Shown here piece by piece: positions 11,371-45,271 of a DNA stretch of 64,000 nt. Positions within the stretch are counted from its first letter, which is position 1. Each line of letters starts with the position of its first letter. The notes beneath the pieces are model-generated. The model was not told where the DNA came from. It was given only the letters and a program-made list of their open reading frames with translations, and did no database searches. A program made the translations under genes and the position numbers. This DNA comes from Verrucomicrobia bacterium UBA3841 (GTDB taxonomy: Bacteria; Verrucomicrobiota; Kiritimatiellia; RFP12; UBA1067). Where the stretch lies: contig DGHT01000045.1 of assembly GCA_002392765.1 (NCBI GenBank), positions 1,315 to 65,314 on the forward strand, written 5' to 3'.

Positions 11371-11460
11371 TCCTCTATGCAGGTGCCGCAGTTTGCCATG
11401 ATGATGTACACCCTGAAAAAAAGTGTATGGGATGCATATTCTCCCTCCGGTCGCAGAACC

Positions 11461-11510
11461 GGTCGCCCGTGGCGAACTGAAGATGGTTGAACGGATTTCC
11501 CATGTCAAAT
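11461..11510 (-). pseudogene. 5' remnant of an AAA ATPase gene (paralog of 41473..42600)
   Basis: 11461-11510 (ggtcgcccgtggcgaactgaagatggttgaacggatttcccatg) aligns with 42561-42602, the start of the intact ATPase gene. Only the first codons survive here. Confidence 0.45.
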
Positions 11511-11742
11511 ATTATATCATCCCTGCTGTCGCGAAATCAAGTATCGGTTTGCGGAATTTTTCGTAGCGGAGAATTTCGTCTTTCGTGCTATGGGGCCCCA
11601 TTGTGTCGGTCTTCATTCTACTGTCAGATTCGCAAAACCGCATCGTATATGTATGGCAAAGGAACTGGAAACCAGAAACCGCAAACCGCCATCTTAATCT
11701 TCTACGTCCGCGCCCGCCGGGTCTGAAAATTGCCTTGACAGA

Positions 11743-13392
11743 ATGAAAAACGGCAAAAAATCAAAAACAAAGTTCGCAAGGATGAAATTCCTGGCGTCGG
11801 TCGTCTTGTCGTCGCCGGCGATCGTATTTCTCTATTCGCCTCTTATGGTCGCACTGTCCGTCGCGGGGATTGCAGTCCCGTTCGCCACCGGGCGATTCAT
11901 CGACTCCCTCGTCGGCGGGATGTCGCCTGCCGCGCCGTTCGCAATCCTCGCCGCGCTCATGGCCGTCCGGTCCGTGATGACACCATGCCTGCAGCGGTTC
12001 ATCCTCTCGCGCTCGAGAAACATCGAGCTGGACCTCCAGCGGCGCGTCCTCGACTCTGTCATGGATTTCCCGCCTTCCGAACTCGCATCGCTCGCCGACG
12101 GAACGCTCGTCGCCAAACTGACGCGCGACGCGTATGCGGTGGGCGGGTTCGCGAGCGGACTCTACCCGCGACTTCTCGGCGCGGTCGTCACAATGTGCGC
12201 GGCAGGCTTCGCACTCCATTCGCGCTCTCCGGCGCTCGGGCTTTCCTTCGTTGCGTTCATTCCGCTCTGCATTGTCATTTTCCTGCCGTTCGCGCGGCGC
12301 TTCGCCGCAAACTCCCGCAGTGTGCGCGCGAAAAGCGACCGGGCGTTCGCCGTGCTTTTCGACTCGTTCCGCTCGCTCCCCTTCCTGCGCACTCTTGACG
12401 CAGAACGACGCTTCGCCGACGCGCCCCGGCAGGCCCTTGACGGTTTCAAGGACGGCAACTGCGCGATGGACGGTCTGACGGTGGCTTTCGGGGCGCTTCT
12501 GGGCATGTTTCTGGTTGTCGGCGAAATTGCAGTCCTCGGCGTTGCGGGCGCGTTCGCCGCCAGGGGCGCGATCCCCGTCGGCGACGTAGTCGTATACCAA
12601 ATGCTGTTTCTCGCGGCCATGCAGTCCATTCAGGGGGTCGTCTCTCTCCTCCCAGAAACGGCGACACTTCGCGAAGGCGTCGATTCAATCGGCGAAATAC
12701 TCGCCCACGCACCGCCAAGGCGAGGAGGCACCCGTATCCACACCATAGAAAGCATCGAATTCCGAAACGTCTCGTTCGCCTACCCTGACACAGCGGCACG
12801 ACCCATTGTCAAGGACTTTTCAGCCACATTCCACGCCGACAAGGTCGTCGCACTCGTTGGAGCGAACGGGGCTGGCAAGACGACGCTTCTCAAATTGGCA
12901 ACTGCAGCACTCGAACCGCAGTCCGGCGAAATCCTCGTCAACGGTTCGCCCATGGCAACGCTCGACAGCGGGTCGTTCAGGCGCAGGATCGGGATCGTGT
13001 TCCAGGACAGTCTTCTCGTTTCGGGAACCGTGCGCGACAACATCACCCTGCGCGACCCCTCGTTCACCCGGGAGGACATAGACGAAGCCGCAGCGCTGAG
13101 CGGCCTTGAAGAAGTCGTGAAACGTCTCCCGCTCGGACTCGACACGCGCGTCGGTCTGTGGGGACAGTCCCTTTCGGGCGGCGAGATGCAGCGCCTAGCA
13201 ATCGCCCGCGCGGTTATACGCAGACCCGACATTCTCGTTCTGGACGAAGTGACGAACCACCTCGACGCGGAAGCGCGCGAGGCCTTCGGAAAACTGCTCC
13301 GCCGCCTCGCTCCCGGACGCATCGTCCTCGTCGTCAGCCACGACCCTGCACTCATCAATCTCTGCGACGAAAAGATTTATTGTCAGATTTGA
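11743..13392 (+). CDS. fused permease/ATPase ABC exporter (likely peptide exporter)
   Basis: 549 aa. The N-terminal half is a multi-TM domain. The NBD carries Walker A GANGAGKTT, signature LSGGEMQRLAIARA and Walker B ILVLDEVTNHLD. Confidence 0.85.
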   Translation: MKNGKKSKTKFARMKFLASVVLSSPAIVFLYSPLMVALSVAGIAVPFATGRFIDSLVGGMSPAAPFAILAALMAVRSVMTPCLQRFILSRSRNIELDLQRRVLDSVMDFPPSELASLADGTLVAKLTRDAYAVGGFASGLYPRLLGAVVTMCAAGFALHSRSPALGLSFVAFIPLCIVIFLPFARRFAANSRSVRAKSDRAFAVLFDSFRSLPFLRTLDAERRFADAPRQALDGFKDGNCAMDGLTVAFGALLGMFLVVGEIAVLGVAGAFAARGAIPVGDVVVYQMLFLAAMQSIQGVVSLLPETATLREGVDSIGEILAHAPPRRGGTRIHTIESIEFRNVSFAYPDTAARPIVKDFSATFHADKVVALVGANGAGKTTLLKLATAALEPQSGEILVNGSPMATLDSGSFRRRIGIVFQDSLLVSGTVRDNITLRDPSFTREDIDEAAALSGLEEVVKRLPLGLDTRVGLWGQSLSGGEMQRLAIARAVIRRPDILVLDEVTNHLDAEAREAFGKLLRRLAPGRIVLVVSHDPALINLCDEKIYCQI

Positions 13393-13473
13393 GAATAACC
13401 TTCGTATGTTAGTGTGCAACGGACGGGTGTCCGCTGCATTGGTTAACCAAAACAAGCAAAAAGGAAACAAATA

Positions 13474-13599
13474 ATGACACCTAACGACATCGCGACCGAT
13501 ATCAGCGGTCTCAATTCCACAGGTACTGGAAGCGTCGCCGCGTCAGTCAACTACACGTATACGTTCGAGCGGATGGACGATGCGAGGACCTGGGACTGA
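13474..13599 (+). CDS. candidate graspetide (omega-ester/amide RiPP) precursor peptide, 41 aa, not in ORF track
   Basis: My own translation is MTPNDIATDISGLNSTGTGSVAASVNYTYTFERMDDARTWD. The C-terminal part is rich in Thr/Ser donors and Asp/Glu acceptors. It lies between the ABC exporter and the ATP-grasp ligase and is followed by a hairpin. Confidence 0.45.
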   Translation: MTPNDIATDISGLNSTGTGSVAASVNYTYTFERMDDARTWD

Positions 13600-13623
13600 T
13601 TAGGCACGGCGTTTACCGCCTGA

Positions 13624-13658
13624 CATTGGGGCTGGCGTGCCAGCCCCAATGTTTTCGC
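13624..13658 (+). terminator. stem-loop plus T-tract (attenuator or terminator after the precursor peptide)
   Basis: CATTGGGGCTG-gcgtgc-CAGCCCCAATG is followed by TTTTCGCC. It sits between the 41-aa ORF and the ATP-grasp gene. Confidence 0.5.
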
Positions 13659-13684
13659 CAACGGCAAACGATGCAATTTGAACC

Positions 13685-14653
13685 ATGATTTTCATCTCCA
13701 CATGCAGCCAAGATTCCACTACGGACATCGTCGTGAAGGAACTCGACGCAAACGACGTCTTGCGCTTCAACATAGACAAGCCCGATGATTTCGCCTGGGA
13801 TTTCCACTCCCGCGGGTTCCGTGTCGCAGACAAAACCTCCGGGAAGGAGATTTCCGAAAAGACGCTCACCTCGTTCTATCTACGCAAACCAATGTACTTC
13901 GACCTCATCGACGTGCCCAAATACGGCTGCGTCGAAAACTGGCGGCGCGAGGAGACGGACGAGCTTTTCAACGACTTTTTCCGCGAGTGCCAGAGCCGTG
14001 GGCTGACCACGCTCGTCCGAAGTCAAAACAACAAGTACGGCAAGCTTCGGCAGTTGCTCGCCGCACAAAGACATTTCCGTGTCGCGCCCTGGCATTTCTT
14101 CCACGGCGAACTACCGGACGAATTGAAAAACGGCAGATGGGTCGTCAAGTCGATGACGCAAACGCCTATTGGACAAGGCAAGGTGTTCTTCGTAAAAGAA
14201 GTTGATCCACGTGCGCTCGACTTGAACTATCCTTGGTTCGTCCAGGAACGAATAGAAGGCGAAGAGGAGGTGACGGTCGTCTATATCGCCGGCAAGACTT
14301 ACGCGGCGAACGCGCCACGTACCTCCTTCGGTGGCGAAGACTCTCGCAAGTCCCTTATGGAAAAACCGACTGCCTGGCCGCGCTGCGAACTCTCTCCAGC
14401 GGAAGAACGCGCCATCAAAGGCTTCATGGACGAAACAGGCTACCGTTTCGGTCGCTTCGACTTCATCCGGAAGGACGGCGAGCTGTGGTTTCTGGAGCTC
14501 AACCCGAACGGACAGTGGGCGTGGCTCGACGAAAAGAACGAACACGGCCTCGTCTCGATGGTCGCTGACGCCGTCAAGCGCGAGGATGCCGCGCACCGTG
14601 CGCGGCAAAAGGCAGAAAGCAGGTCAGGCCTGGTTCCCTCAGTGGAATTGTGA
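13685..14653 (+). CDS. ATP-grasp ribosomal peptide maturase (MdnC/MvdD-like)
   Basis: 322 aa. FGRFDFIRKDGELWFLELNPNGQWAWL is typical of the RiPP ATP-grasp ligase family. The size and the position next to a small peptide and an ABC exporter also fit. Confidence 0.7.
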   Translation: MIFISTCSQDSTTDIVVKELDANDVLRFNIDKPDDFAWDFHSRGFRVADKTSGKEISEKTLTSFYLRKPMYFDLIDVPKYGCVENWRREETDELFNDFFRECQSRGLTTLVRSQNNKYGKLRQLLAAQRHFRVAPWHFFHGELPDELKNGRWVVKSMTQTPIGQGKVFFVKEVDPRALDLNYPWFVQERIEGEEEVTVVYIAGKTYAANAPRTSFGGEDSRKSLMEKPTAWPRCELSPAEERAIKGFMDETGYRFGRFDFIRKDGELWFLELNPNGQWAWLDEKNEHGLVSMVADAVKREDAAHRARQKAESRSGLVPSVEL

Positions 14654-14842
14654 AATTGCGGCTCTTCGGAGTTTTACAGAGGTCCTTAGCAACTCCTGCA
14701 TCGCTTCGTCAGCCATTTGAACTCCGTATATCCATTTACTATTTTTTGCAAAAATTTAATAATTCCATTTACTAAAACACGCATATGATATCATAACTGC
14801 ACCGATATGGTCGATGCTCTATCATTTTCGCGGGCGGTCAGA

Positions 14843-14920
14843 GTAGGGCTGGCGTTCCACCGCCAGCCGCCCCATCCGCCGACCCAAGGAGGCGGAGCGT
14901 CCCGCTCCGCCAGCCGCACC
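14843..14920 (+). repeat. REP-like modular repeat (H1 GGCTGGCGTTCCACCGCCAGCC plus H2 GGAGCGTCCCGCTCC)
   Basis: About 78 bp with two internal hairpins. The same unit occurs at 16881, 18403 and three times at 20202. Confidence 0.8.
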
Positions 14921-15086
14921 TAAGCCCACCTATCTGCCCGCACCTCCACGGCATCGAACCGCAATCCTTGTTCTCCGCCAGTTGTTCCATATACCGCTCT
15001 GCAATACTTTTTTATCCGCAATAAAACAATTATGCTTTTGCCAAGAAAATATGCTATACTATTAATCAACAATTGGAGAAAAGGCA

Positions 15087-16295
15087 ATGACAAAATCTGA
15101 AATTGAGGCAGCGATTGACGAACAGGCCGCTGAAGCCGGGCTCGCCTTGGGGATGAGGCGCGACGCGTTTCGCGATTTGCCGTGCGAAAAGAAGTTTGCG
15201 ACAATCCTGACAGGGGTTCGACGCTGCGGCAAGTCAACTCTTCTTGCGCAATGGGCGCACGATTCCGGCATGCGTGTCTTAAGCGTCCTTTTCGACGATC
15301 TTCGCCTGATGGATTTCTCCCCGTCGGATTTTAAGCTTCTGGGCAAGATAATAGCCGAACGGAAGCCCCAGGCCGTCGCCTTGGACGAAATCCAGGACAT
15401 AGACGGATGGGAGCTGTTCGTCAACGGCCTGCTGAATCTCGGCTATGCAGTATTTGTGACTGGATCAAATGCGAAAATGCTTTCGCGCGAACTTGGCACA
15501 AAGCTGACCGGGCGCCATCTGGACTTGCAACTTCTACCCTTCAGTTTTTCGGAGTTCTGCCGATTCAAGGGACTAGAGCGCAAAGGCGAATCAATTGACG
15601 AATATCTGCGCACCGGAGGATTCCCGGCGTATGTCGAAAGCGGAAACAGGCAGATCTTGGTAGAATTGTTCAACGACATCATCTATCGCGACATAGCCGT
15701 TCGCTACAACCTCCCCAATGCCGCCCCCGTCAAGCATTTGGCCGGATATCTCCTTGGGCACATCGGGACTCGCATTTCGCCCAGCCGATTGAAGGATGCC
15801 ATCCATGTGCAGTCCGCAAAGACCGTCCTCGAGTACTTCGACCATCTGACCGAATGCTGCATGATTCGCCGTCTGGAGCAGTATTCGGAATCGCCGAAAG
15901 CGAGAATGCTCGCGCCAAAGAAGGTGTATGCGTGCGATACCGCCCTGGCGTCGCTGTTCGACCGTGGCAAACAGCTAAATCTCGGACACAAACTGGAAAA
16001 CGTTCTCTTCTGGCACTTGAGCCGGATGGCAAAGGACATCACTTACCATCTCGACGACAAGGACCGCGAATGCGACTTTGTCGTCGAGGACGAGAACGGC
16101 TCGTTTTCGGTCGTGCAGGTCTGCTACGAGCTGACGGACGACAACAGGGAGAGAGAATTCGGCGGGCTTGCCTCCGCAGCAAAAAGGTTTGGCCTCAAAT
16201 CCGGAATCGTCGTCACTTGCAACCAATCCGACGAAGCGATCCACGACGGCTGCGAGATCTCCGTCATCCCAGCCGCCGACTACCTGTCAATGTAA
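15087..16295 (+). CDS. AAA+ ATPase with C-terminal DUF4143-like domain
   Basis: 402 aa with Walker A GVRRCGKSTLL and Walker B ALDEIQD. The architecture is typical of the uncharacterised AAA_14/DUF4143 family. Confidence 0.8.
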   Translation: MTKSEIEAAIDEQAAEAGLALGMRRDAFRDLPCEKKFATILTGVRRCGKSTLLAQWAHDSGMRVLSVLFDDLRLMDFSPSDFKLLGKIIAERKPQAVALDEIQDIDGWELFVNGLLNLGYAVFVTGSNAKMLSRELGTKLTGRHLDLQLLPFSFSEFCRFKGLERKGESIDEYLRTGGFPAYVESGNRQILVELFNDIIYRDIAVRYNLPNAAPVKHLAGYLLGHIGTRISPSRLKDAIHVQSAKTVLEYFDHLTECCMIRRLEQYSESPKARMLAPKKVYACDTALASLFDRGKQLNLGHKLENVLFWHLSRMAKDITYHLDDKDRECDFVVEDENGSFSVVQVCYELTDDNREREFGGLASAAKRFGLKSGIVVTCNQSDEAIHDGCEISVIPAADYLSM

Positions 16296-16448
16296 TACGC
16301 CGCCCCGTGCCGCACCGAGACCGTGCACCTCCTTGCGCCGTCCCCACACCCAAGGAGGTGGAGCGTCCCGCTCCGCCCGCCGCACAGGTGGTTGGATGAG
16401 TCCGAATCCGACAAGTCACGCTACATGTACACAGCGATTCAAGTGCAT

Positions 16449-16753
16449 TCACAACTCCAGCGGCTTGCCGACGTCATAAATCATAGTTGCCGGAAGCGAG
16501 TCTTTCTGCAGGAACATCACCATGTAGATTGGCGCATAGTATACTTTGCCGGCAGATTCCATCGCATCGTCGTCAAACACAATCGCCGACTCAATCCCGT
16601 ACTCATCGCATTCCAGAAGCTTGTCCAGTGCTCTGTGACGCTTGTAGTGCTTACCGCTCTTTACCTCGATCGGGCTCCATCAATGAGTAGTGCCGTTCTG
16701 CCTGCCTCTTGATAGAATCTTTCCAGTCTCTCCATTATTTTGCGATAAATCAT
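16449..16753 (-). pseudogene. internally deleted AAA/DUF4143 ATPase remnant
   Basis: The minus-strand reading starts MIYRKIMERLERFYQEAGRTALLIDGARSR and then hits a stop where the Walker A should follow. After a frame change it continues IEVKSGKHYKRHRALDKLLECDEYGIESAIVFDDD...GKPLEL, which is the family's C-terminal end. Confidence 0.5.
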
Positions 16754-16880
16754 ATACTTTCACCTTTCGCGGCAAATTATAGCATACCTACGTCAAAAAA
16801 TCAACCCGCAAATAAAGATTTTTGACAATTTTTGAACCACAAAAGAGTATCTACTTGACAAAAACTACCCCATCAGAAAT

Positions 16881-16957
16881 GGTAGGGCTGGCGTTCCACC
16901 GCCAGCCGCCCCACCCCCCGCCCCAAGGAGGTGGCGCGTCCCGCCCCACCCGCCACG
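16881..16957 (+). repeat. REP-like modular repeat, diverged copy
   Basis: GGTAGGGCTGGCGTTCCACCGCCAGCCGCCCCACCCCCCGCCCCAAGGAGGTGGCGCGTCCCGCCCC. A partial H2-only copy also lies at about 16345..16386. Confidence 0.75.
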
Positions 16958-17478
16958 CAGGAGATTGGATGCGCCCAACATCCGACAAGTCGCAGCATTT
17001 ATGGCGAGACGGGTTTACAATGGGGTCTGCCCCCCAACTGGGAAAGCACCCCTGCTAGGGCATCGCCAAGGCGACTCGCCTTCGGCTCGGGGGATATGCC
17101 ATCTTGGCGGCTGTATCAAGGAGATGGAGCATCTTGCTCCGTCCTAACTGGGAAAGCCGCCGTCCCGGCGGCTTAGGAATTTCGCAATTGCGGAATCGGT
17201 AGGGCGGCGTGTCCCCACACCGCTGGTAGGGCGCGATCACCGGTATCACCCGAACATAGCGAGCCGCGCAAGCGGTCGCTAGAGGGGTGCGCCCCGCCGT
17301 CGCCGCTGTCAAAAGAACAGAGGAAGGTATGCTCCGAAAAGTATCGTTGCATTCCCGACAATCGCACATTTCAGTCCATATGTCAATGCGACCCGTCGCA
17401 TGGCGCGGTTCAAACCCATCGCTTGGCACAACGGCACTGTGAAATCCACCCAAGCTCAAATCAAGGAAACGAGTGAAA

Positions 17479-17547
17479 CTTGACAAAATGACGGAGTGAA
17501 GCTTGGCAAAATGACGGAGTGGAATCTGGCAAAATGACGGAGTGCTG
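17479..17547 (+). repeat. three tandem 23-24-bp repeats (core GRCAAAATGACGGAGTG)
   Basis: cttgacaaaatgacggagtgaag / cttggcaaaatgacggagtggaat / ctggcaaaatgacggagtgctg, immediately upstream of the truncated ATPase ORF at 17556. Confidence 0.7.
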
Positions 17548-17555
17548 TTGCGTTT

Positions 17556-18167
17556 GTGCTGAAGTCGCTTGCACGCAATGTCTCGTCCATTGCCACCCAG
17601 CAGACAATCATTGACGACATGTGCGCCAACGACTGTACGGCGTCGGACAAAACGGTGGCAGACTACCTAAATGCACTCAGGAAGATATTTGTTGTTGAAG
17701 ACACGCCGGCGTGGACGCCCGCGCTACGGTCGAAGACGGCCATACGATCAGCTGCGAAGCGCCAGTTCTCGGATCCATCAATTCCAGCAGCCGTCCTGGG
17801 GGCGAATCCCGACGGCCTTATGCGAGATATCGTGACACTGGGATTCCTGTTCGAGTCGATGTGTTGCCGTGATCTCCGAGTTTACGCGCAGGCAATGGAC
17901 GGACAGGTTTCGCATTTCCGCGATCGGCATGGACTGGAAATTGACCTCGTGGTGTCATTGCCGGACGGAAGATGGGGCGGCGTGGAGGTGAAGCTCGGCA
18001 GTGGGCGGATAGACGAGGCTGCGCAGAATCTTCTCAAGGTCGCCGGACGAGTGGATGAGATGCGCACGGGCAAGCCTTCGTTTCTGATGGTTCTGACCGG
18101 GGCGAAATTCGCCTTCCGACGCCCTGATGGCGTCATTGTCTGTCCCTTGGGCTGCCTGAAACCTTGA
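17556..18167 (+). pseudogene. N-terminally truncated AAA/DUF4143 ATPase (C-terminal 203 aa only)
   Basis: The ORF lacks any Walker A region. It begins inside the DUF4143-like part and ends in the restriction-endonuclease-like tail (ENLGLEIDLVV..WGGVEVKLGSGRID pattern: GLEIDLVVSLPDGRWGGVEVKLGSGRIDEAA). Confidence 0.55.
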
Positions 18168-18190
18168 CCTTTCGCAGATCGACGGCGTCC

Positions 18191-18402
18191 TTTCGGTCGT
18201 GCAGGTCTGCTACGAGCTGACGGACGACAACAGGGAGAGAGAATTCGACGGGCTTGCCTCCGCGGCAAAAAGGTTTGGCCTCAAATCCGGAATCGTCGTC
18301 ACTTGCAACCAATCCGACGAAGCGATCCACGACGGCTGCGAGAACTCCGTCATCCCAGCCGCCGACTACCTGTCAATGTAATACGCCGCCCCGTGCCGCA
18401 CC
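18191..18402 (+). pseudogene. duplicated 3' end of the 15087..16295 ATPase gene
   Basis: 18191-18402 is near-identical to 16105-16320. It encodes ...VQVCYELTDDNREREFDGLASAAKRFGLKSGIVVTCNQSDEAIHDGCENSVIPAADYLSM together with the same downstream flank. Confidence 0.65.
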
Positions 18403-18481
18403 GGTAGGGCTGGCGTTCCACCGCCAGCCGCCCCACCCGCCGACTCAAGGAGGTGGAGCGTCCCGCCCCACCCGCCGCACC
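18403..18481 (+). repeat. REP-like modular repeat
   Basis: Full H1+H2 unit: GGTAGGGCTGGCGTTCCACCGCCAGCCGCCCCACCCGCCGACTCAAGGAGGTGGAGCGTCCCGCCCCACCCGCCGCACC. Confidence 0.8.
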
Positions 18482-18534
18482 ATGGGGAAAAAGGGATAGA
18501 CGTAGCCATGGCGCCTGCCGTACTCACTGCCGCG

Positions 18535-18654
18535 TCAGAACTCGCGAGTCGACGGGAACATCGCCCCATTTCGTTCTGCCGCAAGATACGGGCAGCCGCC
18601 CATTGGCATGCACAATATCAGGCAGCCAATTATGATCACGATTCTCTTTTTCAC
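18535..18654 (-). pseudogene. truncated paralog of the lipoprotein gene 20425..21090 (signal peptide only)
   Basis: A GTG-start reading gives MKKRIVIIIGCLILCMPMGGCPYLAAERNGAMFPSTREF then a stop. The DNA at 18600-18720 aligns with 21040-21140, including the upstream region. Confidence 0.45.
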
Positions 18655-18818
18655 AGCACAGCCTCCCTATCCAATTCACCAATGGCAAGAACGCGATGCT
18701 CGCGAGGTTTGCCGCTGTGCATAGATTTTCCAACTGCCGGTTATTAGATTAAAGCCAACAGCGGCACCATCAATCCGAACCTATGAAGCGATATCAGATC
18801 TGCCACGATATGTCGCCT

Positions 18819-18906
18819 CTTGCGATTTCCTTCGACGCCTACTTGCGATTTCCTCTGATTCCTACTTGCGATTTCCCCTGATTCCTACTTGCGATTTCCT
18901 CCTATG
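18819..18906 (+). repeat. four tandem 23-bp repeats (CTTGCGATTTCCNCTGATTCCTA)
   Basis: The units start at 18819, 18842, 18865 and 18888. The array ends about 40 nt before the ATPase start codon at 18946. Confidence 0.75.
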
Positions 18907-18945
18907 TTATGCTATAATATTATCAATAAAAATGGAGATAGTACG

Positions 18946-20163
18946 ATGATATCCAGATGGCAAGAAAATAATCTAATACATGGGCTCAAGGTGCGTCGCG
19001 GCATCCATCTTACAGGTGCTAGACAGGTAGGGAAAACCACACTGGCAGAAGCCATAAGCATAGATTCTGTCGTGCATCGCTCTCTGGACAAGTCATCACA
19101 AGTCAGGGCGGCAAAATCCGATCCAGAGCTGTTTGTGCGTAGGAAAGGGGCTGAAACCATTGTTATTGATGAAATACAAAAAGCGCCCGAGTTGCTTGAA
19201 GAGATAAAACTCAAAGTTGACCACGACAATTCGCCTGGCCAATATCTTCTTACCGGCAGCTCAAATCTTCGTTTCCTCAAATCTGTAAAGGATTCGCTTG
19301 CCGGACGGTTTGGCACAATCAGGTTGCGAACGCTAACCCTTGGTGAACTAAACGGCTCTGCTCCCGACTTTCTCGACCAGTTATTCAATGAAGACTTCAG
19401 GAGAGCTTCAAAGGGCTTTGACAAACCATCACTAATCCATGCAGCCTTCATGGGCGGCTATCCGGAGCCGCTTGAGTTTTCGCATAGAGACAAGAAAGAC
19501 TGGGTGAAGAACTACCTCAATGATATTCTGACGAAGGACATAAAGGACATAACGGAGCTTAGGAAGCTGGATTCCTTGAGTGCAGCCGTGCTTTGGCTGA
19601 TGGCCCACACGGCTCAGCTCTTTACAATCGAGGAGTTCGGCGCCAAAGCCGGACTCACGCGAGAAACATCCCAGACATACATAGCCGCGTTGACAGCGCT
19701 TTACCTCTTCGACAAGGTCCCAGCATGGGCGAAAAGCGATTATGACAAAATCGGGAAACGTCCAAAATACATCATCACAGACACCTCGCTCGCCTCAATC
19801 ATGCTGGGCTGGCACGAAGACAATGTGGTTTTCGACGAACACACAAACGGGAAACTTGCGGAGTCCTGGGCCTATCATGAGATAGCCGCCCAGGCTGATA
19901 TCACAGGCGACTACAGCATAACACATTACAGAGACAGTGACAAGCGCGAAATTGATTTTGTCGTTGAGCGCGACGACGGACATTGCGCCGGGATTGAGGT
20001 GAAATGCGGTTCCTCCGTCGGGGATGAAGATTTCAAGCATCTTAAATGGTTTCGTGCAAAGTTCAATATGGACCGATTCACAGGAATTGTCCTTTACACG
20101 GGAAACGACGTGCTGAGTTTCGGCAATCACATGTACGCCGTCCCCTTTGCGAACTTGACCTGA
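18946..20163 (+). CDS. AAA+ ATPase with DUF4143-like C-terminal domain
   Basis: Start taken at MISRWQENNL, preceded by GGAGA. Walker A is GARQVGKTTLAE and Walker B is VIDEIQK. The C-terminus is REIDFVVERDDGHCAGIEVKCGSS. Confidence 0.8.
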   Translation: MISRWQENNLIHGLKVRRGIHLTGARQVGKTTLAEAISIDSVVHRSLDKSSQVRAAKSDPELFVRRKGAETIVIDEIQKAPELLEEIKLKVDHDNSPGQYLLTGSSNLRFLKSVKDSLAGRFGTIRLRTLTLGELNGSAPDFLDQLFNEDFRRASKGFDKPSLIHAAFMGGYPEPLEFSHRDKKDWVKNYLNDILTKDIKDITELRKLDSLSAAVLWLMAHTAQLFTIEEFGAKAGLTRETSQTYIAALTALYLFDKVPAWAKSDYDKIGKRPKYIITDTSLASIMLGWHEDNVVFDEHTNGKLAESWAYHEIAAQADITGDYSITHYRDSDKREIDFVVERDDGHCAGIEVKCGSSVGDEDFKHLKWFRAKFNMDRFTGIVLYTGNDVLSFGNHMYAVPFANLT

Positions 20164-20201
20164 CGCTCCGCAAAAAACGGCAATCCGCCCCGTGCCGCAC
20201 C

Positions 20202-20403
20202 GGTAGGGCTGGCGTTCCACCGCCAGCCGCCCCACCCGCCGACCCAAGGAGGTGGAGCGTCCCGCTCCGCACGCCGCACCGATAGGGCTGGCGTTCCACC
20301 GCCAGCCGCCCCACCCGCCGACTCAAGGAGGTGGAGCGTCCCGCTCCGCCCGCCGCACCGGTAGGGCTGGCGTTCCACCGCCAGCCGCCCCGCCCGCCGC
20401 ACC
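20202..20403 (+). repeat. tandem array of REP-like units (two full units plus one H1-only)
   Basis: The units span 20202-20280, 20281-20359 and 20360-20403. They are directly abutting with no spacers. Confidence 0.85.
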
Positions 20404-20424
20404 GGAGCTTGCATCCTTCTGCCA

Positions 20425-21090
20425 CTACCGCAACATCCCATAACCAGGTATCACGACTTCGAGCGGACCGTATAACTCGGGCGCATAATGGTATGGCGCG
20501 ACAGAATATTCTGCGAAAACGAAGTGCAGACCATCCTTGCCGACATAGAAATTCTCCGAAAGCGAGGCGAGTACCTCGTTTGCCGTCGGCAGCAAATTCA
20601 TTTCCCCGCCGATCTTGGCGATTACGGCCTCTCGCACCCTTGCAATCGCCTCAGCGCGTTTGCCTTCCGGGATTACGTCGGCGGTAGTCAGCCGCTTCCC
20701 CGTCCTCACATCTATCGTCCCGACTTTGACAACCGTGCCGCCATGCGCTCCACCAGTGTACCTGAAGCATTCCGCACGATAGCTGAAGAACGTCCGTTGG
20801 TCGGTATAAACCACCTTGTATTCAGACTTGTATTCCCGTGTGGTCAGCATGTAGAACCCGCCGCCCTCCGGCTCGAAATAACTCGCCAGGTTCGTGTCGC
20901 CAAAGACATCCCGAACCTCGTTCACATAGCAATCCAGGTAATTCCTGAAATCGCTCGCAAAGGCATCGGCATCCTTCACAACAGAGTCGCACGCGCCCCC
21001 CTCTCGTCCAACTTCGCCATATCTGCACCCGCCCACCAAAGCGATACCCAATACCAGACAGCCGATTATGATCACGATGCTCTTTTTCAC
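20425..21090 (-). CDS. lipoprotein with DUF4163/DUF3298-like domains
   Basis: 221 aa with a GTG start and lipobox LVGGC. FRYTGGAHGG is characteristic of the DUF3298 (RsiV-like) fold. Confidence 0.6.
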   Translation of the reverse strand: MKKSIVIIIGCLVLGIALVGGCRYGEVGREGGACDSVVKDADAFASDFRNYLDCYVNEVRDVFGDTNLASYFEPEGGGFYMLTTREYKSEYKVVYTDQRTFFSYRAECFRYTGGAHGGTVVKVGTIDVRTGKRLTTADVIPEGKRAEAIARVREAVIAKIGGEMNLLPTANEVLASLSENFYVGKDGLHFVFAEYSVAPYHYAPELYGPLEVVIPGYGMLR

Positions 21091-36997: not shown

Positions 36998-37272
36998 GCG
37001 CCCTACCGTTCCCCGCGCAGGAAATCTGTTTGTACATATTATACCACAAAAATGGAAAATGCGGCGGAATTTTTCCCGTTCACAACGACGAGGGCGTCGT
37101 CGCTACGCAGGACATCTGTCAGCTATCTCCAACTTTGCAACATTGCCAAAATCAGGTCTGCGGCACGAAAATTCCCGCGAGAGATCCCCGCCCGCAGGCC
37201 TGCCCGGGCTCTCTCAGCCGGGTTTACGCCTAGTGGCATTACAGTATACGGGAGAGCGGCGGGAATCTGACA
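36998..37272 (+). repeat. composite repeat A+B+C (left end of the cassette-like stretch)
   Basis: A (36998-37065) recurs at 41079-41145. B+C (37089-37272) recurs at 39466-39649 with one mismatch. C (37235-37272, GGCATTACAGTATACGGGAGAGCGGCGGGAATCTGACA) recurs four times in total. Confidence 0.85.
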
Positions 37273-39465: not shown

Positions 39466-39649
39466 CGAGGGCATCGTCGCTACGCAGGACATCTGTCAGC
39501 TATCTCCAACTTTGCAACATTGCCAAAATCAGGTCTGCGGCACGAAAATTCCCGCGAGAGATCCCCGCCCGCAGGCCTGCCCGGGCTCTCTCAGCCGGGT
39601 TTACGCCTAGTGGCATTACAGTATACGGGAGAGCGGCGGGAATCTGACA
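39466..39649 (+). repeat. repeat B+C copy
   Basis: 184 bp, near-identical to 37089-37272. Confidence 0.9.
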
Positions 39650-39730: not shown

Positions 39731-40042
39731 TTATACCATATCCGCACAATCCTCGCGCACGGCATCGGCAAACAGCTTCGGCTGGCGAATCGCAATGCGG
39801 AGAAGAACCCGCGCCGCTCCGGTCGGATGACGCCGCCCTTGTTCCCAATTGCGCAGTGTGCCGACGCTGACGCCCATGAATTTTGCAAATGAGTCCTGGC
39901 TGAGATTGAAGGCCTGACGCACATGTTGTACGTCTTCCTTGTTTTCGACCACAAAACGGCGAGAAGGCCTGCGCTCTCCCCTAAGGATTTCTCCCCCTTC
40001 GCGCATGCTCTCAAGCAGCAAGTCAAAATTCTTCTTATTCAT
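39731..40042 (-). CDS. XRE-type HTH antitoxin (HigA/COG2944-like)
   Basis: Start taken at MNKKNFDLLLESMREG, preceded by GGAGGG. The HTH is LSQDSFAKFMGVSVGTLRNWEQGRRHPTGAARVLL. Confidence 0.7.
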   Translation of the reverse strand: MNKKNFDLLLESMREGGEILRGERRPSRRFVVENKEDVQHVRQAFNLSQDSFAKFMGVSVGTLRNWEQGRRHPTGAARVLLRIAIRQPKLFADAVREDCADMV

Positions 40043-40107: not shown

Positions 40108-40145
40108 GGCGTTACAGTATACGGGAGAGCGGCGGGAATCTGACA
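40108..40145 (+). repeat. repeat C copy (alone)
   Basis: GGCGTTACAGTATACGGGAGAGCGGCGGGAATCTGACA. Confidence 0.85.
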
Positions 40146-40240: not shown

Positions 40241-40990
40241 TCACAGTTCCGAAAGGATGTTCTTCCGCCCGGACTGGTATTCCTCCTCGGTGACGAGGTT
40301 CTCGTCCTTCAATTCCTGCAAAGCGGCGAGACGGTCTTTGAGCGGCTGTTTGCATGGAACGGCAGCTGCTTCGCTCTTCCTGTTCCAGCAAGCCAGCAAA
40401 GTCGCGTAAAACACGAAAAGCGCAATTTGCCCGATCAATTCAAACCACGGGAAAACGTTTCTGTACAAAGGCGAATAATCGTTCTGGGCATAGACGATCA
40501 GGCGAACGACGAGCATTTCTGCAATCGTCGCGAATCCGATCATGCCTATGCAGCCGACCGCTCCTGCCACTCTGTCCTTCAACAGATGCACGGGCGTCAG
40601 CGTCAATGCCGTAAAAGCGGACATCAACGCAAGCCAGTGCATCTGGTTCTCCCTGGCGAACTCAATAATGAAATCCGCCTCGCAATACACGGCAAGATTA
40701 TGCAGCAGGCACATGAAACCGCCCGCCAATCCAAGGTAGGGAGTTATGCGATGCGGCTTGAAAACAAGCAGCGACACAATTCCTCCGATAAAGCAGACAT
40801 TCCCTGTCAGGTAAAGCAGCTGGATAAAATCGTAATACGACTTGAATTCATCGTAAGACTTGAAATCGAACTTGATCAGCGTAAGTCCCGCGTTTATTGC
40901 AAACAATGCGTACGCAATGGCGCAAAGTGCGCCTGTCCATACCAGGCATTGCCTGCGCTCCACGTTTGGTTTTACAACTTGACCAGTCAT
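40241..40990 (-). CDS. multi-pass membrane protein with C-terminal SHOCT-like domain
   Basis: 249 aa with about six hydrophobic helices. The C-terminus is LAALQELKDENLVTEEEYQSGRKNILSEL. Confidence 0.6.
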   Translation of the reverse strand: MTGQVVKPNVERRQCLVWTGALCAIAYALFAINAGLTLIKFDFKSYDEFKSYYDFIQLLYLTGNVCFIGGIVSLLVFKPHRITPYLGLAGGFMCLLHNLAVYCEADFIIEFARENQMHWLALMSAFTALTLTPVHLLKDRVAGAVGCIGMIGFATIAEMLVVRLIVYAQNDYSPLYRNVFPWFELIGQIALFVFYATLLACWNRKSEAAAVPCKQPLKDRLAALQELKDENLVTEEEYQSGRKNILSEL

Positions 40991-41078: not shown

Positions 41079-41186
41079 GCGCCCTACCGTTCCCCGCGCG
41101 GGAAATCTGTTTGTACATATTATACCAAAAAATGGAAAATGCGGCAATGGCATTACAGTATACGGGAAAGCGGCGGGAATCTGACA
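41079..41186 (+). repeat. repeat A+C copy (right end of the cassette-like stretch)
   Basis: A spans 41079-41145 and C spans 41149-41186. The B module is absent. Confidence 0.85.
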
Positions 41187-41250: not shown

Positions 41251-41430
41251 ACGGGCGGGACGCCACCCTGCTAGGGCATCCGCTTCGCGGACGGTCTTCG
41301 ACCGGGGGATACGTTCCCCCAGTTACGGGCGGGACGCCACCCCTGCTAGGGCATCCGCTTCGCGGACGGTCTTCGACCGGGGGATACGTTCCCCCAGTGA
41401 CGGGCGGGACGCCCATTCCCCCAGTGACGG
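41251..41430 (+). repeat. tandem 74-75-bp repeats (two full units plus a partial)
   Basis: The unit is ACGGGCGGGACGCCACCCCTGCTAGGGCATCCGCTTCGCGGACGGTCTTCGACCGGGGGATACGTTCCCCCAGT. Related single copies lie at 1-35 and 17040-17110. Confidence 0.8.
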
Positions 41431-41472: not shown

Positions 41473-42600
41473 CTATGCAAAGCGGAGGAATTGCGCGAAA
41501 AAAGGATCGGCAACGACGTACTTTCCTTCAGACTGCTCGATATGACCGTCTTCCATCAACTTGCCCTTGGCGGAATTTACAGTAGACGAGACTCCGAGCG
41601 CATGACGTCTTCGATATGCATCGCCAAACTCATCCGTCCGTTCGCGCGACAGTGCGATCAGCAGTTTCTTCTGCGAGACGGACAACGTGAGCATCAGCTG
41701 TTCGTACTGGTCGCGGTTGAACCCGGAAAGATTTGCGAACGCCGAGTCCACGTCATCCGGCGAAACCGACTTCCGGCGCGCGTCGTCGATCAACCGGAAT
41801 GTCTCGAATCCCAGCTGCTGGATGAAATATGGTATGTTCTCCACCTTCGCGACAAGCCGTTCGGCCGTCTCACACGCAATTGCCTTCCCAGCGCTCGCGA
41901 ACCTGTCGACCACGAAACGGACACTCTCATCCACCGGCGGCTTGTCGATGTGAATCGTGACAGCCGACTTGTAGAACGGACGGTTGTGGTCGGTGAACAT
42001 CCTCCGAAGCATGTGGTATCGGCTGCCGAGAAAGATATACGAGACGTTGCGGTGCGACTGTATGGCCGAGCGCATGACCCTCTCGAAGCCGTCGTTCGGC
42101 AACAGGTCCTTCACCTCCTGGAATTCGTCCAACACGACAACGGCCCGCTTCTTTCCTGAAAGCAGCTTCTGCGGGAGGTCCAGAACCTCCGTCAACGCCT
42201 CGGCTCCAATCTGCTCATCCGACGGCTCGAAGGAAAAACCCGCCTCGCCCGTCTGGTCAAGCGTCATCTTTGGCCTGAGGCTCTTTAGGAACGTCCCCAA
42301 CTTCCTCAATTCGAATTTGACGGGCGCAAGCCGCCGGTATACCTTCGTCGCGTACGCGGAGACGAACAGGTCGATCGACGGGACCTTCACCACGTCAAGC
42401 GTCACGCACGGGATTCCGGCCTTTTCGAGATCGCCTGTCAACTCGGCGACAAGCGAACTCTTGCCGTAGCGTCGCGGTCCGTACAGGACAACGTTCGACT
42501 GTCCGCTCAAGAACCTGGAAAGAAGGTCTTCGCGGATATCCCTCCTGTCGTAGAACTGGTCGCCCCTGGCGAACTGAAGATAGTTGAATGGATTTCCCAT
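41473..42600 (-). CDS. AAA+ ATPase (archaeal-ATPase/PF01637-like, with C-terminal winged-helix-like part)
   Basis: Start taken at MGNPFNYLQFARGDQFYDRRD. Walker A is GPRRYGKSSL and Walker B is VVLDEFQE. Confidence 0.75.
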   Translation of the reverse strand: MGNPFNYLQFARGDQFYDRRDIREDLLSRFLSGQSNVVLYGPRRYGKSSLVAELTGDLEKAGIPCVTLDVVKVPSIDLFVSAYATKVYRRLAPVKFELRKLGTFLKSLRPKMTLDQTGEAGFSFEPSDEQIGAEALTEVLDLPQKLLSGKKRAVVVLDEFQEVKDLLPNDGFERVMRSAIQSHRNVSYIFLGSRYHMLRRMFTDHNRPFYKSAVTIHIDKPPVDESVRFVVDRFASAGKAIACETAERLVAKVENIPYFIQQLGFETFRLIDDARRKSVSPDDVDSAFANLSGFNRDQYEQLMLTLSVSQKKLLIALSRERTDEFGDAYRRRHALGVSSTVNSAKGKLMEDGHIEQSEGKYVVADPFFAQFLRFA

Positions 42601-42865
42601 GCCGACAATTATACCATTTGCCAAACGGATTATCAAGTATCAACTTACGAAATTTTTCGTTACGAGAAACTTCGTAATGCGAGGCGGCTTCCGCCAATTT
42701 TACATTTTACACTTTACATTTTACACTATTCCCCGGCGGTTTTGTTGTCAGATTCGGGGAATGGCGCCGTATATGACGCCAGAATGGACAGCGGTTCGTC
42801 CTTTCGCGCACGAGCGACATCGAACTGCGGTTGCAGGAATCGGTTCTCCGCGCCATTCTGGACAT

Positions 42866-43180
42866 CCCCCGCCGGAACTTTCGTCCGTCGCGGACGGAAC
42901 GCCCGTCGCCAAGGGCGCGATCCCCGTAGGGGACGTGGTCGTCTATCAGATGCCTTTCCTCGCGGCGATGCAGCCCGTACAGGGCATCGTCTCGCTCCTC
43001 CCCGAAGCCGCAGCGCTACGCGAAGGGATCGACTCCATCCGCAAGAACGGCGAGCTATGGTTCCTTGAACTGAATCCGAACGGGCAGTGGGCGTGGTTAG
43101 ACGAAAAGAACGAACACGGACTCGTTTCGATGGTCGCGGATGCGATCAAGCGCGAAGATGCCGCGCATCGGGCGCGTCCA
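42866..43180 (+). pseudogene. deletion-fused remnant of a second ABC-exporter / ATP-grasp (graspetide-type) locus
   Basis: The reading ..PPPELSSVADGTPVAK|GAIPVGDVVVYQMPFLAAMQPVQGIVSLLPEAAALREGIDSI|RKNGELWFLELNPNGQWAWLDEKNEHGLVSMVADAIKREDAAHRAR joins three segments. They are homologous to 12070-12120, 12560-12690 and 14470-14610. Confidence 0.65.
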
Positions 43181-43772
43181 TTTCGGCAAGAACCTGCGCA
43201 ACCGCCTCGCGCAGCCTCGCGGTGAGGCGCTTGCGGATCTGGTAGAGATTGTCGCGGGATATGCCGTAGATACGCATGACGGTTTCGGTGTCCTGCCCCT
43301 CGACCGCGCTCGCGACAAACGCCGCATAGTGCTCGGGACGGGCCTCCGGCTTGATTCGGCGGAGCGCCTCTTCCATCGCCGCCTGCTGCCACTCGCGCTC
43401 GGAGAAGCCGTCATCGTCGGACGCAGCAGCCTTGGCTTCCTCCCAGAACGACGCCTTCAGCCCGGCGTCGCGTTTGCCGGACCTCAGTCTGTCGTTGACG
43501 CGCCAGTGGACCAGCCCCGTAAGATACGACCTGAATTTTCCTTTGGCGCGATCGTATTTGAACGCCGGCAGGTTGCGCGCAAGATCAGTGAAAACGACTT
43601 GCACGATGTCGTCGGCGTCCTCTTCTTTGAGTCCCTTCGAGCGCGCAATGGAGAACACGAACCCTGCGTAGAGGTCGAAGAACTTCTGCCACGCCGCCTC
43701 GTTTCCCGTGTCCGCGACAGCCCTGATGACGCTGGAGCGCGTCGTTTCGTTGTTGAAGTGTCTGTATGTCAT
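43146..43772 (-). CDS. ECF-type sigma-70 family sigma factor
   Basis: The start MTYRHFNNETT overlaps the kinase stop (ATGA). Region 2 is FFDLYAGFVFSIARSKGLKEEDADDIVQVVF. Region 4 is the HTH ETVMRIYGISRDNLYQIRKRL. Confidence 0.8.
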   Translation of the reverse strand: MTYRHFNNETTRSSVIRAVADTGNEAAWQKFFDLYAGFVFSIARSKGLKEEDADDIVQVVFTDLARNLPAFKYDRAKGKFRSYLTGLVHWRVNDRLRSGKRDAGLKASFWEEAKAAASDDDGFSEREWQQAAMEEALRRIKPEARPEHYAAFVASAVEGQDTETVMRIYGISRDNLYQIRKRLTARLREAVAQVLAEMDAPDARHLRA

Positions 43773-45271
43773 CTTAACAACCAGGGTTCGAATCCACAAT
43801 CGTGGTGTATGCGCCAAACTATATGGAAGAATGCCTCGACCTGAGGATATATTTCTACGAACAGCGAATTGCGCTTTTTGAATATTTTCTGCGCTTGTCC
43901 GAATTCCTCCTTGTCGTCTAATCCGGACAAGACCTTTTCTTTTCCCTTGGAATGCAACAGGATTATCTCCTTCTTCAGCGAGGCGTCTTTGGCGTCAAGT
44001 CCGGCTATCTTTTCCGCAAGATTGTCGTAACTCCGTTGCAACTGTTCCGCCTTTGCTTTGTCGACAGTGCCGATTTCTTCGATATCTCTCTCGATAATAT
44101 CTATGAACGACTCGATCGCGCCTCTATTCTCCGCTTTTATTTCAAGACCTCCCCAGTTGGAGTATCGCCCGTGGGACTTGATCTGCAAGACTTCATCTTC
44201 GATTCTGTCCTCCGGGAGTATGCCTTTCAATGTTTCCCGGATTGATTCTTCCGCCATTGCATCAAACGCGGATACGGTTTTTTTCGCCTCTGCGATCTCA
44301 GCGGATTGCTTCACAATGCCGTTTTTCGCTTGAACAGCATTTTCATTGGCTTGATTGGCGGCGTTTTTGATTTGTTTTATAGCGATTATCGAAGCCGCCG
44401 CAACAGCAGCGATGCACAACGCCGCCAGCGCATATACGGTTTTTGCAGTCCGGGACTTCGCAAAAGAAGCAATCGCAATCTTTCTGCGGAGAGCCAGCAA
44501 ATCCTTCAGCAAAGCCTTTGCCGATTGGTAGCGGCGAGCAGGCGTAGGATCGGTTGCCTTGTTGAGGATGCGCCACCACGCGGGGAAGAGCGGCGCGCCC
44601 GTATCGGCTTCCAGCGCGGGGCCTTTGTCGAGGTCTTCCAATTTCCTTCCGAAGCTCGCCGCCTTGAGCGTGAGGCCGAGACTGTAGATGTCGCTGGCGG
44701 CATCAGTGAACTTCTCCGGCGGAACATATCCGGGCGTACCGACGGTGGAGACTGCGACGGATTCTTCAACGAGAAGCCCGGGGTCGGAAAGAACGGGACG
44801 TCCTTTGACGTACAGAACGTTAGCGGGCTTGATGTCGCGATGGAGCAGATGGTGGCGCTGGAGGACGGCAAGCCCCTTCGCCAGCGACAGGGCGAGGCCG
44901 ATGCACTCCTTGACCGGCAAAGCCTTCTCGCTCTCGATCACGCGGGCGAGCGTCTTCGGGCGATAGCCGGACTCTGCTTCCCGCGAACCGCCGAATTCAT
45001 CGTCCGCAAGATCCATCACGGCATAGAAGCATCCGTCCGCCTCGCGGAGGCCCCTCATGCGCACAAGCCCCTCATGCGGAGGAATCGAACGGTAGAGCTT
45101 CGCTCCGCGCAGCTCGCGTTCGTAACGCTCGTCGCCGACATCTTCACGACGGCAGACCTTAACCGCCGCGCGTCCACCGTCCGGACCGGCAGCCATGTAG
45201 ACCGCGCCGTACGCGCCGCGGCCGATCTCCCGCGACAGTTTCCACTCTCCGCATGTTTGCATCATCGACAA
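43769..45271 (-). CDS. Hanks-type Ser/Thr protein kinase with TM segment and coiled-coil C-terminal domain
   Basis: Motifs are GRGAYGAVY, AVKV, HRDIKPANVL, SDPG and GTPGYVPPE. A hydrophobic helix follows (VYALAALCIAAVAAASIIAI). Confidence 0.85.
   Translation of the reverse strand: MSMMQTCGEWKLSREIGRGAYGAVYMAAGPDGGRAAVKVCRREDVGDERYERELRGAKLYRSIPPHEGLVRMRGLREADGCFYAVMDLADDEFGGSREAESGYRPKTLARVIESEKALPVKECIGLALSLAKGLAVLQRHHLLHRDIKPANVLYVKGRPVLSDPGLLVEESVAVSTVGTPGYVPPEKFTDAASDIYSLGLTLKAASFGRKLEDLDKGPALEADTGAPLFPAWWRILNKATDPTPARRYQSAKALLKDLLALRRKIAIASFAKSRTAKTVYALAALCIAAVAAASIIAIKQIKNAANQANENAVQAKNGIVKQSAEIAEAKKTVSAFDAMAEESIRETLKGILPEDRIEDEVLQIKSHGRYSNWGGLEIKAENRGAIESFIDIIERDIEEIGTVDKAKAEQLQRSYDNLAEKIAGLDAKDASLKKEIILLHSKGKEKVLSGLDDKEEFGQAQKIFKKRNSLFVEIYPQVEAFFHIVWRIHHDCGFEPWLLR

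Follow-up and report, generated by a model that had tools for sequence, protein, structure and literature searches.

What becomes of a 41-residue peptide whose gene lies between those of an ATP-binding cassette (ABC) exporter and an ATP-grasp ligase? The question is raised by three genes in a 64,000-nucleotide stretch of DNA, here called the window, from the assembly of Verrucomicrobia bacterium UBA3841 (Kiritimatiellia; GCA_002392765.1, contig DGHT01000045.1, positions 1,315 to 65,314 of the forward strand). Our analysis points to a graspetide-type cassette for a peptide synthesized ribosomally and modified after translation (RiPP), in which the peptide is probably cross-linked by the ATP-grasp ligase and exported by the ABC pump, a reading to which we assign a probability of about 0.85. 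An initial annotation, made from the letters alone, had named an exporter, a 41-residue open reading frame (ORF) and an ATP-grasp ORF, and all three lie where it had placed them (Table 1). The window was compared with 34 related genome loci, nearly all from metagenome-assembled genomes of ruminant-gut Kiritimatiellae, and with 80 related metagenome loci that include human-gut contigs.

The family of the ligase carries most of this assignment. Its NCBIfam matches number only four, and all are to graspetide maturase models (TIGR04187, E = 8e-23; MvdC, 2e-15; MvdD, 7e-9; GRASP_w_spasm, 1e-8). With 81, 56, 35 and 35 bits against curated cut-offs of 350, 425, 475 and 230, the protein reaches none of them and is thus a member of none of the four maturase subfamilies (TIGR04184, TIGR04185, TIGR04187 and TIGR04192). 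An exhaustive search found 1471 representatives of this family of roughly 300-residue proteins at E values up to 1e-3. All 26 diverse relatives that we aligned match three of the same four models, 25 match the fourth, and none matches another NCBIfam family or, judged on best E-values, reaches a cut-off; Pfam returned no match for the window's ligase and essentially nothing for the 26. In the PDB, the ligase sequence matches only MdnB, AMdnB, PruB, CdnC and MdnC, and a profile built from the 26 relatives retrieves these same five alone, over their full length (E = 4e-36 to 1e-18). An AlphaFold model computed from an alignment of 38 relatives (predicted local distance difference test score 91, predicted template modelling score 0.87) gave a similar answer when searched against PDB folds: the top 17 matches are all graspetide ligases (E = 6e-14 to 5e-11), led by AMdnB, PruB, MdnC, CdnC and MdnB, with PsnB further down at 7e-9 and RimK and D-Ala–D-Ala ligase at 6e-8 and above.

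The agreement extends to individual residues. The block FLELNPNGQWAWL, which the initial annotation had read as the signature of such peptide ligases, does align with FLEVNPGGEWGML of MdnB and FLEINPTGEWGML of AMdnB, its counterpart in the solved graspetide ligases being FLE(V/I)NPxGEWGML. Residues invariant in the family comprise D259, E271 and N273, which bind metal and ATP, the pair R67–K68, and D219-x-R221; in the profile alignment these fall on the D, E, N, RR and DWR of AMdnB. In PsnB, and in graspetide ligases at large, the carboxylate that enters the ring is reportedly held by two conserved arginines (bioRxiv 10.1101/2021.03.09.434688). Judged by position, the arginines of the window's ligase may be equivalent to Arg72 and Arg213 of PsnB. 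Sequence and model together place the enzyme among the graspetide-type ligases, in a clade covered by no curated model; every public source that names it calls it a "hypothetical protein".

Could the enzyme nonetheless act on the peptide without forming side-chain macrocycles, either adding amino acids to a carboxylate in the manner of RimK or joining the peptide to another molecule? Three observations weigh against the graspetide reading. The ligase scores far below every curated graspetide cut-off and has no Pfam match, so its chemistry could differ; the global template modelling scores (TM-scores) between its model and the solved ligases are modest, at 0.42–0.47; and the cassette encodes no leader peptidase. 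RimK and LysX/ArgX, moreover, are among the fold matches and have comparable TM-scores, with E values of 6e-8 and above. Yet neither RimK, nor D-Ala–D-Ala ligase, nor any other non-RiPP ATP-grasp enzyme was matched by sequence or profile at E values up to 0.01–1, and the grouping with non-RiPP enzymes that the initial annotation had named as fatal to its proposal did not emerge, since the NCBIfam, PDB-profile and fold searches all gave graspetide ligases. The peptides, described below, also suit a C-terminal tailing enzyme poorly: their C-termini are varied (D, G, R, Y, S, Q, H, V or N), and the residues conserved among them are internal hydroxyl and Asp-Asp positions. We regard an activity of the RimK kind as improbable and favor cross-linking of the peptide's side chains.

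Is the small ORF a gene at all? A homologous ORF lies 53–185 nt before the ligase in every one of the genome loci that has upstream DNA, and likewise in the 80 metagenome loci, down to 42% ligase identity and with human-gut contigs included; in all, about 100 loci with enough DNA bear a precursor, with no exception. The question posed by the initial annotation, whether the ORF is kept beside ligase homologs, is thus answered in the affirmative. There is one precursor per cassette, and in all 27 genome loci with enough DNA it occurs together with ligase and exporter, the ABC gene lying upstream of it and encoding a protein of 57–84% identity. Relatives of the precursor fill 188 database clusters, none named and none with a Pfam domain, and gene callers always label them "hypothetical protein".

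Pooling the precursors gave 172 unique peptides with a conserved leader pattern, MTPNDIAT.I..L, and a hypervariable core. Mean pairwise identity is 0.77 over the leader (first 13 residues), 0.37 over the Thr box and 0.56 over the acidic Asp-Asp tail, and the segment in between occurs in 90 distinct versions of 0–12 residues, all in frame. P3 and D36 are invariant in the alignment, and T2, A7, T8, T28 and D35 are at least 90% conserved. A conserved leader followed by a variable core is the pattern expected of RiPP precursors, and by this measure we take the 41-codon ORF to be a real, conserved precursor gene. Cores can differ within one genome, as in the assembled genome UBA3750, which carries two cassettes with differing cores. 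In a goat-omasum genome (locus L001, 3827-3964), the precursor reads into an in-frame stop where relatives such as locus L051 have Trp (...NYTYCSG*NGQRLDDSHTWD); this may be a pseudogene, a sequencing error or a case of read-through.

The residues that remain constant in the core are those from which ester rings could be built. Asp-Asp occurs in 164 of the 172 unique peptides, and the other eight form a D-x4-D class (LPSW..T..G.DWNQWDS). The general pattern is T-x-[S/T/C], 3–13 residues and D-D, within a fuller box [S/T]-x-x-x-T-x-[S/T/C]. Its third position is Cys in 34 peptides, a fifth of the cores, and 33 of these 34 have an upstream Thr, a figure to be taken as a lead and not as a count because automatic registration of the Thr box is imperfect; we rely only on the count of Asp-Asp pairs, on conservation in the alignment and on identity values. 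A codon-position count over the leader is biased by the pattern searched for and carries no weight here. As a lead from the sequences, nearly every core would offer two or more hydroxyl donors and two or more acidic acceptors. The three Thr and four acidic residues that had been noted among the last 15 residues of the window's peptide can be read directly from its sequence. No conserved Lys was found among the 172 peptides, and a lactam is therefore not expected. A conserved Gly just before the core (..G|N-I..) could mark a cleavage site.

By analogy with known graspetides, we propose the following pathway. The 41-residue peptide would be translated and its N-terminal leader (TPNDIAT.I..L) would dock on the ligase, which would use ATP to phosphorylate the side-chain carboxylates of the conserved Asp35–Asp36 and then close omega-ester rings with the hydroxyls of the Thr-x-Ser/Thr box, Thr28 and Thr30 in the window. 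The product, probably a small bicyclic peptide, would be exported by the half-size ABC transporter. Pfam resolves this protein into ABC_membrane (residues 36–294) and ABC_tran (357–505), and its best NCBIfam matches are generic exporters, every one below cut-off. No C39 peptidase domain was found in it by Pfam, and its transmembrane region begins at about residue 17–36, so it does not qualify as a peptidase-containing ABC transporter.

Table 1. Features of the cassette and of associated elements in the window.
Feature	Position	Strand	Basis
Promoter-like motif TGTCAGATT-N13-CGTAT, 95 nt upstream of the ABC exporter start	11622-11648	+	Exact copy
ABC exporter half-transporter (transmembrane domain and ATPase, without C39 peptidase domain), 549 aa	11743-13392	+	Pfam
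Second copy of the promoter-like motif, overlapping the last ABC codons (FCQI*) and preceding the precursor	13381-13407	+	Conserved in alignments
Conserved 10-bp hairpin, presumably in the 5' untranslated region of the precursor's message	13415-13438	+	Covariation
Near-invariant 12-nt palindrome TTGGTTAACCAA	13439-13450	+	Alignments
Shine-Dalgarno AGGA, after the palindrome and an A-rich stretch	13462-13465	+	Alignments
Precursor peptide, 41 aa, MTPNDIATDISGLNSTGTGSVAASVNYTYTFERMDDARTWD	13474-13599	+	ORF and conservation upstream of homologous ligases
Precursor leader, residues ~1-19, MTPNDIATDISGL, then Gly-rich linker	within 13474-13599	+	Conservation
Precursor core, residues ~20-41, SVAASVNYTYTFERMDDARTWD; candidate ring residues Thr28, Thr30, Asp35, Asp36	within 13474-13599	+	Conservation
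GC-rich hairpin, 12 Watson-Crick pairs, up to 14 with A-T and G-T, then weak T-tract	13622-13653	+	Folding and conservation
ATP-grasp peptide ligase of graspetide-maturase type, 322 aa, divergent clade without curated model	13685-14653	+	NCBIfam, PDB profile, fold search
Four further exact motif copies with identical spacer sequence, inside short repeats	37246-37272, 39623-39649, 40119-40145, 41160-41186	-	Motif scan
Decayed second cassette, precursor deleted	42584-43225	+	tblastn and ORF translation
ECF-type sigma factor, convergent with the decayed cassette, candidate trans regulator	43146-43817	-	TIGR02937, Pfam Sigma70_r2
Hanks-type membrane Ser/Thr kinase; its gene lies upstream of the sigma gene and overlaps the start of the latter	43769-45271	-	Pfam Pkinase 11-262

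How might precursor and enzyme be kept in proportion? Between their genes lies a hairpin whose stem pairs 13624-13635 with 13640-13651 around the loop CGTG and can be extended to 14 pairs over 13622-13653; the 90-nt spacer that contains it folds with -36.4 kcal/mol (z = -3.3). The initial annotation had described a perfect 11-bp stem-loop with a T-tract. The stem-loop is real, its length is 12–14 bp, and the T-tract is weak, consisting of TTTT only, with two of the four T able to pair with the stem; a consensus terminator scan of the window does not report the hairpin. With so weak a T-tract, the structure does not look like a canonical terminator. All 30 loci examined for it have a hairpin of 8–16 bp (-16 to -32 kcal/mol) starting 8–27 nt past the precursor stop, and a distant human-gut locus has one as well. 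Stem sequences differ from locus to locus, which argues for selection on the structure itself. The hairpin was also considered as a genome-wide repeat and rejected, the pattern GGGCTGGC..GCCAGCCC occurring only once in the window; a similar arm in the 79-nt repeats further downstream belongs to a different element.

Classical attenuators have a comparable layout, in which a short ORF and then a strong hairpin, here a conserved one, come right before an enzyme gene, and the ORF might be a regulatory leader peptide, or upstream ORF, that attenuates ligase expression together with the hairpin and is no substrate at all. We consider this very improbable. Conservation acts at the level of the protein, with P3 and D36 invariant and with Thr box and Asp-Asp maintained after in-frame insertions of 0–12 residues; the spacer offers a single hairpin and no alternative pairing; the exporter is strictly co-inherited; and distant relatives retain the peptide in other layouts. 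A substrate of the ligase accounts better for these features.

The sequence upstream of the precursor adds to the picture. The 27-nt motif TGTCAGATT-N13-CGTAT occurs in seven exact copies in the window against 0.01 expected, and no variant with one mismatch was found there; a degenerate general promoter was rejected on these grounds. In most related loci, a copy stands 37–78 nt upstream of the ABC start. The copy on the precursor side is retained in each of 23 loci aligned at the start of the precursor and in an alignment of 48 sequences, and one locus (L030) keeps it with no ABC gene upstream. Neither the window nor the related loci have a copy between precursor and ligase. In its sharpness and in its form, with a -35-like box, a fixed spacer and a CGT-containing -10 element, the motif recalls promoters of the extracytoplasmic function (ECF) type.

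Downstream of the second motif copy, the 5' hairpin has 91.5% of its alignment cells paired, and five of its pairs show changes on both sides (18 cells); none of 500 shuffles reached the observed pairing or covariation score, and the sense strand is rich in G-U pairs. A search of 11–21 kb of the window against Rfam, at E values up to 0.1, gave no match, so the elements of the untranslated region belong to no known RNA family. The palindrome TTGGTTAACCAA may serve as an operator. A Shine-Dalgarno-like site precedes 27 of 27 precursors, 6 of 27 ligases and 1 of 27 ABC genes.

We propose that the cassette would be driven by two ECF-like promoter copies, of which the first stands ahead of the ABC gene and the second, within the last codons of that gene, ahead of the precursor. 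The message for the precursor would be bracketed by the 5' hairpin and the strong 3' hairpin and would carry the only consistent Shine-Dalgarno site, and the ligase would be reached only by read-through of the 3' hairpin. With its own promoter-like motif, bracketing hairpins and ribosome-binding site, the precursor should be made in excess over the ligase. Over-production by way of the hairpin had been suggested at the outset; the idea gains from the recurrence of the hairpin, the separate motif and the distribution of Shine-Dalgarno sites.

What could recognize the motif? A candidate lies beside a second, decayed cassette of the window. There, ABC fragments (residues ~84–125 and 269–316) are fused in one ORF to a ligase C-terminus (residues 258–307, 92% identity), with the promoter-like motif retained at 42746-42772. 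Its DNA is only 78–86% identical to that of the intact cassette, which makes it an old paralogue and not a recent copy. A 42-codon remnant (MGNPFNHLQFATGDRF...) at 11375-11503 on the minus strand, upstream of the intact cassette, corresponds to an AAA ATPase gene, which is whole where it lies upstream of the decayed cassette (41473-42636, minus strand); the two share 78% DNA identity over ~120 nt, from which we deduce a common upstream junction of both cassette regions.

Convergent with the decayed cassette is the gene for an ECF-type sigma factor, which scores 59.5 bits against a cut-off of 42.9 for TIGR02937 (sigma70-ECF) and also matches Pfam Sigma70_r2. Of 78 loci with sufficient DNA downstream, 44 have a homolog that abuts or overlaps the ligase 3' end, again convergently, and a further 12 have one elsewhere in the locus. 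How closely these sigma factors match that of the window varies with ligase identity (r = 0.85). A search of 114 related loci showed homologs of the adjacent kinase in 50, and ORF clustering showed them in 29 of 33 genome loci. In one locus (L027, 1-4092), the order is ligase, ABC exporter, kinase and sigma factor, all on the same strand, and the linkage of these genes thus outlasts rearrangement. Distant loci that keep the sigma factor have the promoter motif, and those without the sigma factor lack it. We propose the pair beside the decayed paralogue as a candidate regulator of the cassette. The closest relatives of the intact cassette (L003, L029 and L109) likewise have no adjacent sigma factor, which would fit regulation in trans.

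Several findings count against so direct a regulatory scheme. A proper T-tract is missing in most loci, the 8 nt after the 3' hairpin holding 0–6 T and usually 2–4. The four motif copies on the minus strand precede unrelated genes, among them that of an XRE-type helix-turn-helix protein, starting at 40042, and that of a membrane protein, starting at 40990. The co-occurrence of sigma factor and motif is confounded by lineage, and the window's intact cassette has no sigma or kinase gene next to it. Nor does the sigma factor conform fully to the ECF43 group (EcfP/PknT, EcfK/PknS), for which an adjacent membrane Ser/Thr kinase gene is the hallmark context (PMC13147305). Here, too, an ECF sigma gene lies beside a membrane Ser/Thr kinase gene, which overlaps its start. 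However, in place of DxxDxxQE the sigma-2.2 segment of ECF43 factors is typically uncharged and has a conserved phospho-acceptor Thr (PMC13147305), whereas the window's factor (EEDADDIVQVVF) keeps a charged D-A-D-D-I-V-Q (DxxDxxQ) segment of the kind typically lacking in ECF43, and the context described for ECF43 does not include a link with a RiPP cassette. We rejected the idea that the motif is cassette-specific, given its copies before other genes, and consider that it defines a wider regulon or a lineage-typical promoter. No consistent site was found by which the motif could autoregulate the sigma/kinase operon.

What purpose would the exported peptide serve? It might be an autoinducer, sensed by the linked Ser/Thr kinase and signaling through it to the ECF sigma factor and the cassette promoters, and not a protease inhibitor or antagonistic effector. 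The linkage of sigma factor and kinase holds through rearrangements and down to 33–46% sigma identity, the cassette promoters resemble ECF promoters, and the extracytoplasmic part of the kinase is very variable. That variability does not follow the peptide, however. Loci L021, L022 and L024 have identical cores and kinases of 345, 325 and 571 aa, whereas L061 has a different core and a kinase C-terminus like that of L021; a co-variation of kinase sensor domain and core class is not supported, as the C-terminal regions do not follow core class. These regions look like charged coiled coils and not like ligand-binding domains, and about a quarter of loci, together with the window's intact cassette, have no adjacent sigma/kinase pair. 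We think autoinduction unlikely. An antagonistic or inhibitory role for the product would agree with cores that diversify fast beside near-identical ligases, with paralogous cassettes and with the decay of cassettes.

Protease inhibitors and constrained peptide scaffolds come in growing number from graspetides, and the cassette would place a largely uncultured rumen and gut lineage on their map, through a ligase clade that current Pfam and NCBIfam models leave unnamed. A ready test of substrate tolerance lies in the natural cores, of which near-identical enzymes would handle no fewer than 172 variants. RiPP regulation in this phylum becomes directly testable through the tie between the cassette and an ECF sigma factor with a Ser/Thr kinase, and through a well-defined motif.

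More distant ligases, at 34–46% identity, also follow small ORFs, which start with [S/T]P-x-x-h-A and have an extra PAYDW box. Loci L037 and L117 pair a 46%-identical ligase (5001-5915 of L037) with a 75-residue precursor (MSPANVATDV...PAYDW...NDDAVPYD) among phage-like neighbors (pRha/KilA-N/ANT, DUF3987, a PD-(D/E)XK nuclease and a DNA ligase) and may represent a prophage-borne relative of the cassette. In loci L035, L036 and L040, 34%-identical ligases come after a 61-residue peptide (M[YL]TPE[MI]LSS..PAYDW..DSQNDNND) and a conserved 175-residue protein without a family match, and in L035 and L040 a pentapeptide-repeat protein follows; these loci may be a variant that depends on a partner protein. 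A viral collection yielded only relatives at 23–48% and was not informative.

The window's LacI-like, 391-residue, TatD-like, esterase-like and AAA_14 genes are not kept beside homologs and were rejected as cassette parts, and the flanks of the intact cassette match no other fetched locus except one identical short contig. A repeat of ~79–96 nt with the palindrome GGCTGGCG-TTCCAC-CGCCAGCC starts 170 nt past the ligase stop and is confined to 14825-20438 of the window, with six copies, three of them in tandem at 20185-20438, and no Rfam match. The same region holds a cluster of AAA_14/DUF4143 ATPase genes (15087-16295, 17556-18381 and 18889-20163; one intact, one fragmented and one divergent) and a 222-nt segment duplicated at 97% identity (16096-16317 and 18182-18403), which together suggest local rearrangement downstream of the cassette. 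Two intergenic tandem repeats were also seen: three copies of a 23-nt unit at 18819-18901, just upstream of and overlapping the gene start at 18889, and two copies of a 73-nt unit at 41266-41413.

How does the cassette compare with described graspetide systems? The microviridin ligases MdnB/MdnC and AMdnB (group 1) are its best matches in sequence, profile and fold, over the full length. On both sides, the ligase has the FLE-x-NP-x-G-x-W block, Asp/Glu/Asn as metal ligands and the DWR motif, the precursor begins with a recognition leader at its N-terminus, and a single small operon unites the genes, often with that of an ABC transporter. Sequence identity in the fold-search alignments is nevertheless only 18–21%, the MvdC and MvdD models remain far from cut-off, and one ligase stands here where microviridins have two. 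The leader is TPNDIAT.I..L instead of PFFARFL, and there is neither a TxKxPSDx(D/E)(D/E) core nor a conserved Lys; PFFARFL and the microviridin core motif are absent from the 41-residue peptide and its 172 relatives alike, which sets the family apart from microviridins and bears out the earlier remark that the core does not fit TxKYPSD. Among curated families, the actinobacterial SAV_5884-type maturases (TIGR04187) score best with the ligase and with each of the 26 relatives, but the window's protein gives 81 bits against 350 and is matched in its C-terminal half only, and taxon, leader and core are different.

In the logic of its core, the cassette comes closest to plesiocin (group 2; PsnA2/PsnB), whose core, TTxxxxEE, has two nested esters between Thr and Glu and thereby an inner and an outer macrolactone ring (bioRxiv 10.1101/2021.03.09.434688). 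The two have in common a pair of hydroxyl donors close together and a pair of neighboring acidic acceptors. In contrast to plesiocin, the acceptors here are Asp and not Glu, the donors are one residue apart, the spacer is variable, and each precursor has one core in place of four repeats; PsnB is also the weaker structural match (E = 7e-9), without a sequence match.

Large inventories of such systems exist. The survey of Makarova et al. 2022 lists 174 precursor families (PMC8939145), and the 2026 RODEO update at least 43 groups and 21,584 predicted graspetides (PMC13097080). The phylum name, the leader and core motifs and four NCBI accessions of the family gave no match in the parts of these two sources and their supplement tables that were covered, where absence is not proof, and no description of the leader or core motif turned up in a wider literature search. 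It is possible, though we would stop short of calling it probable, that the cassette stands for an undescribed graspetide group of gut Kiritimatiellae and relatives, with a TPNDIAT leader, a T-x-[S/T/C]...DD motif, hundreds of fast-diversifying cores and an expression tied, by way of a dedicated motif, to an ECF sigma factor and a Ser/Thr kinase that are inherited along with it. Set beside microviridins, plesiocin and the TIGR04187 maturases, our verdict on the cassette is that of a new group within the known graspetide class and not of a new kind of system.

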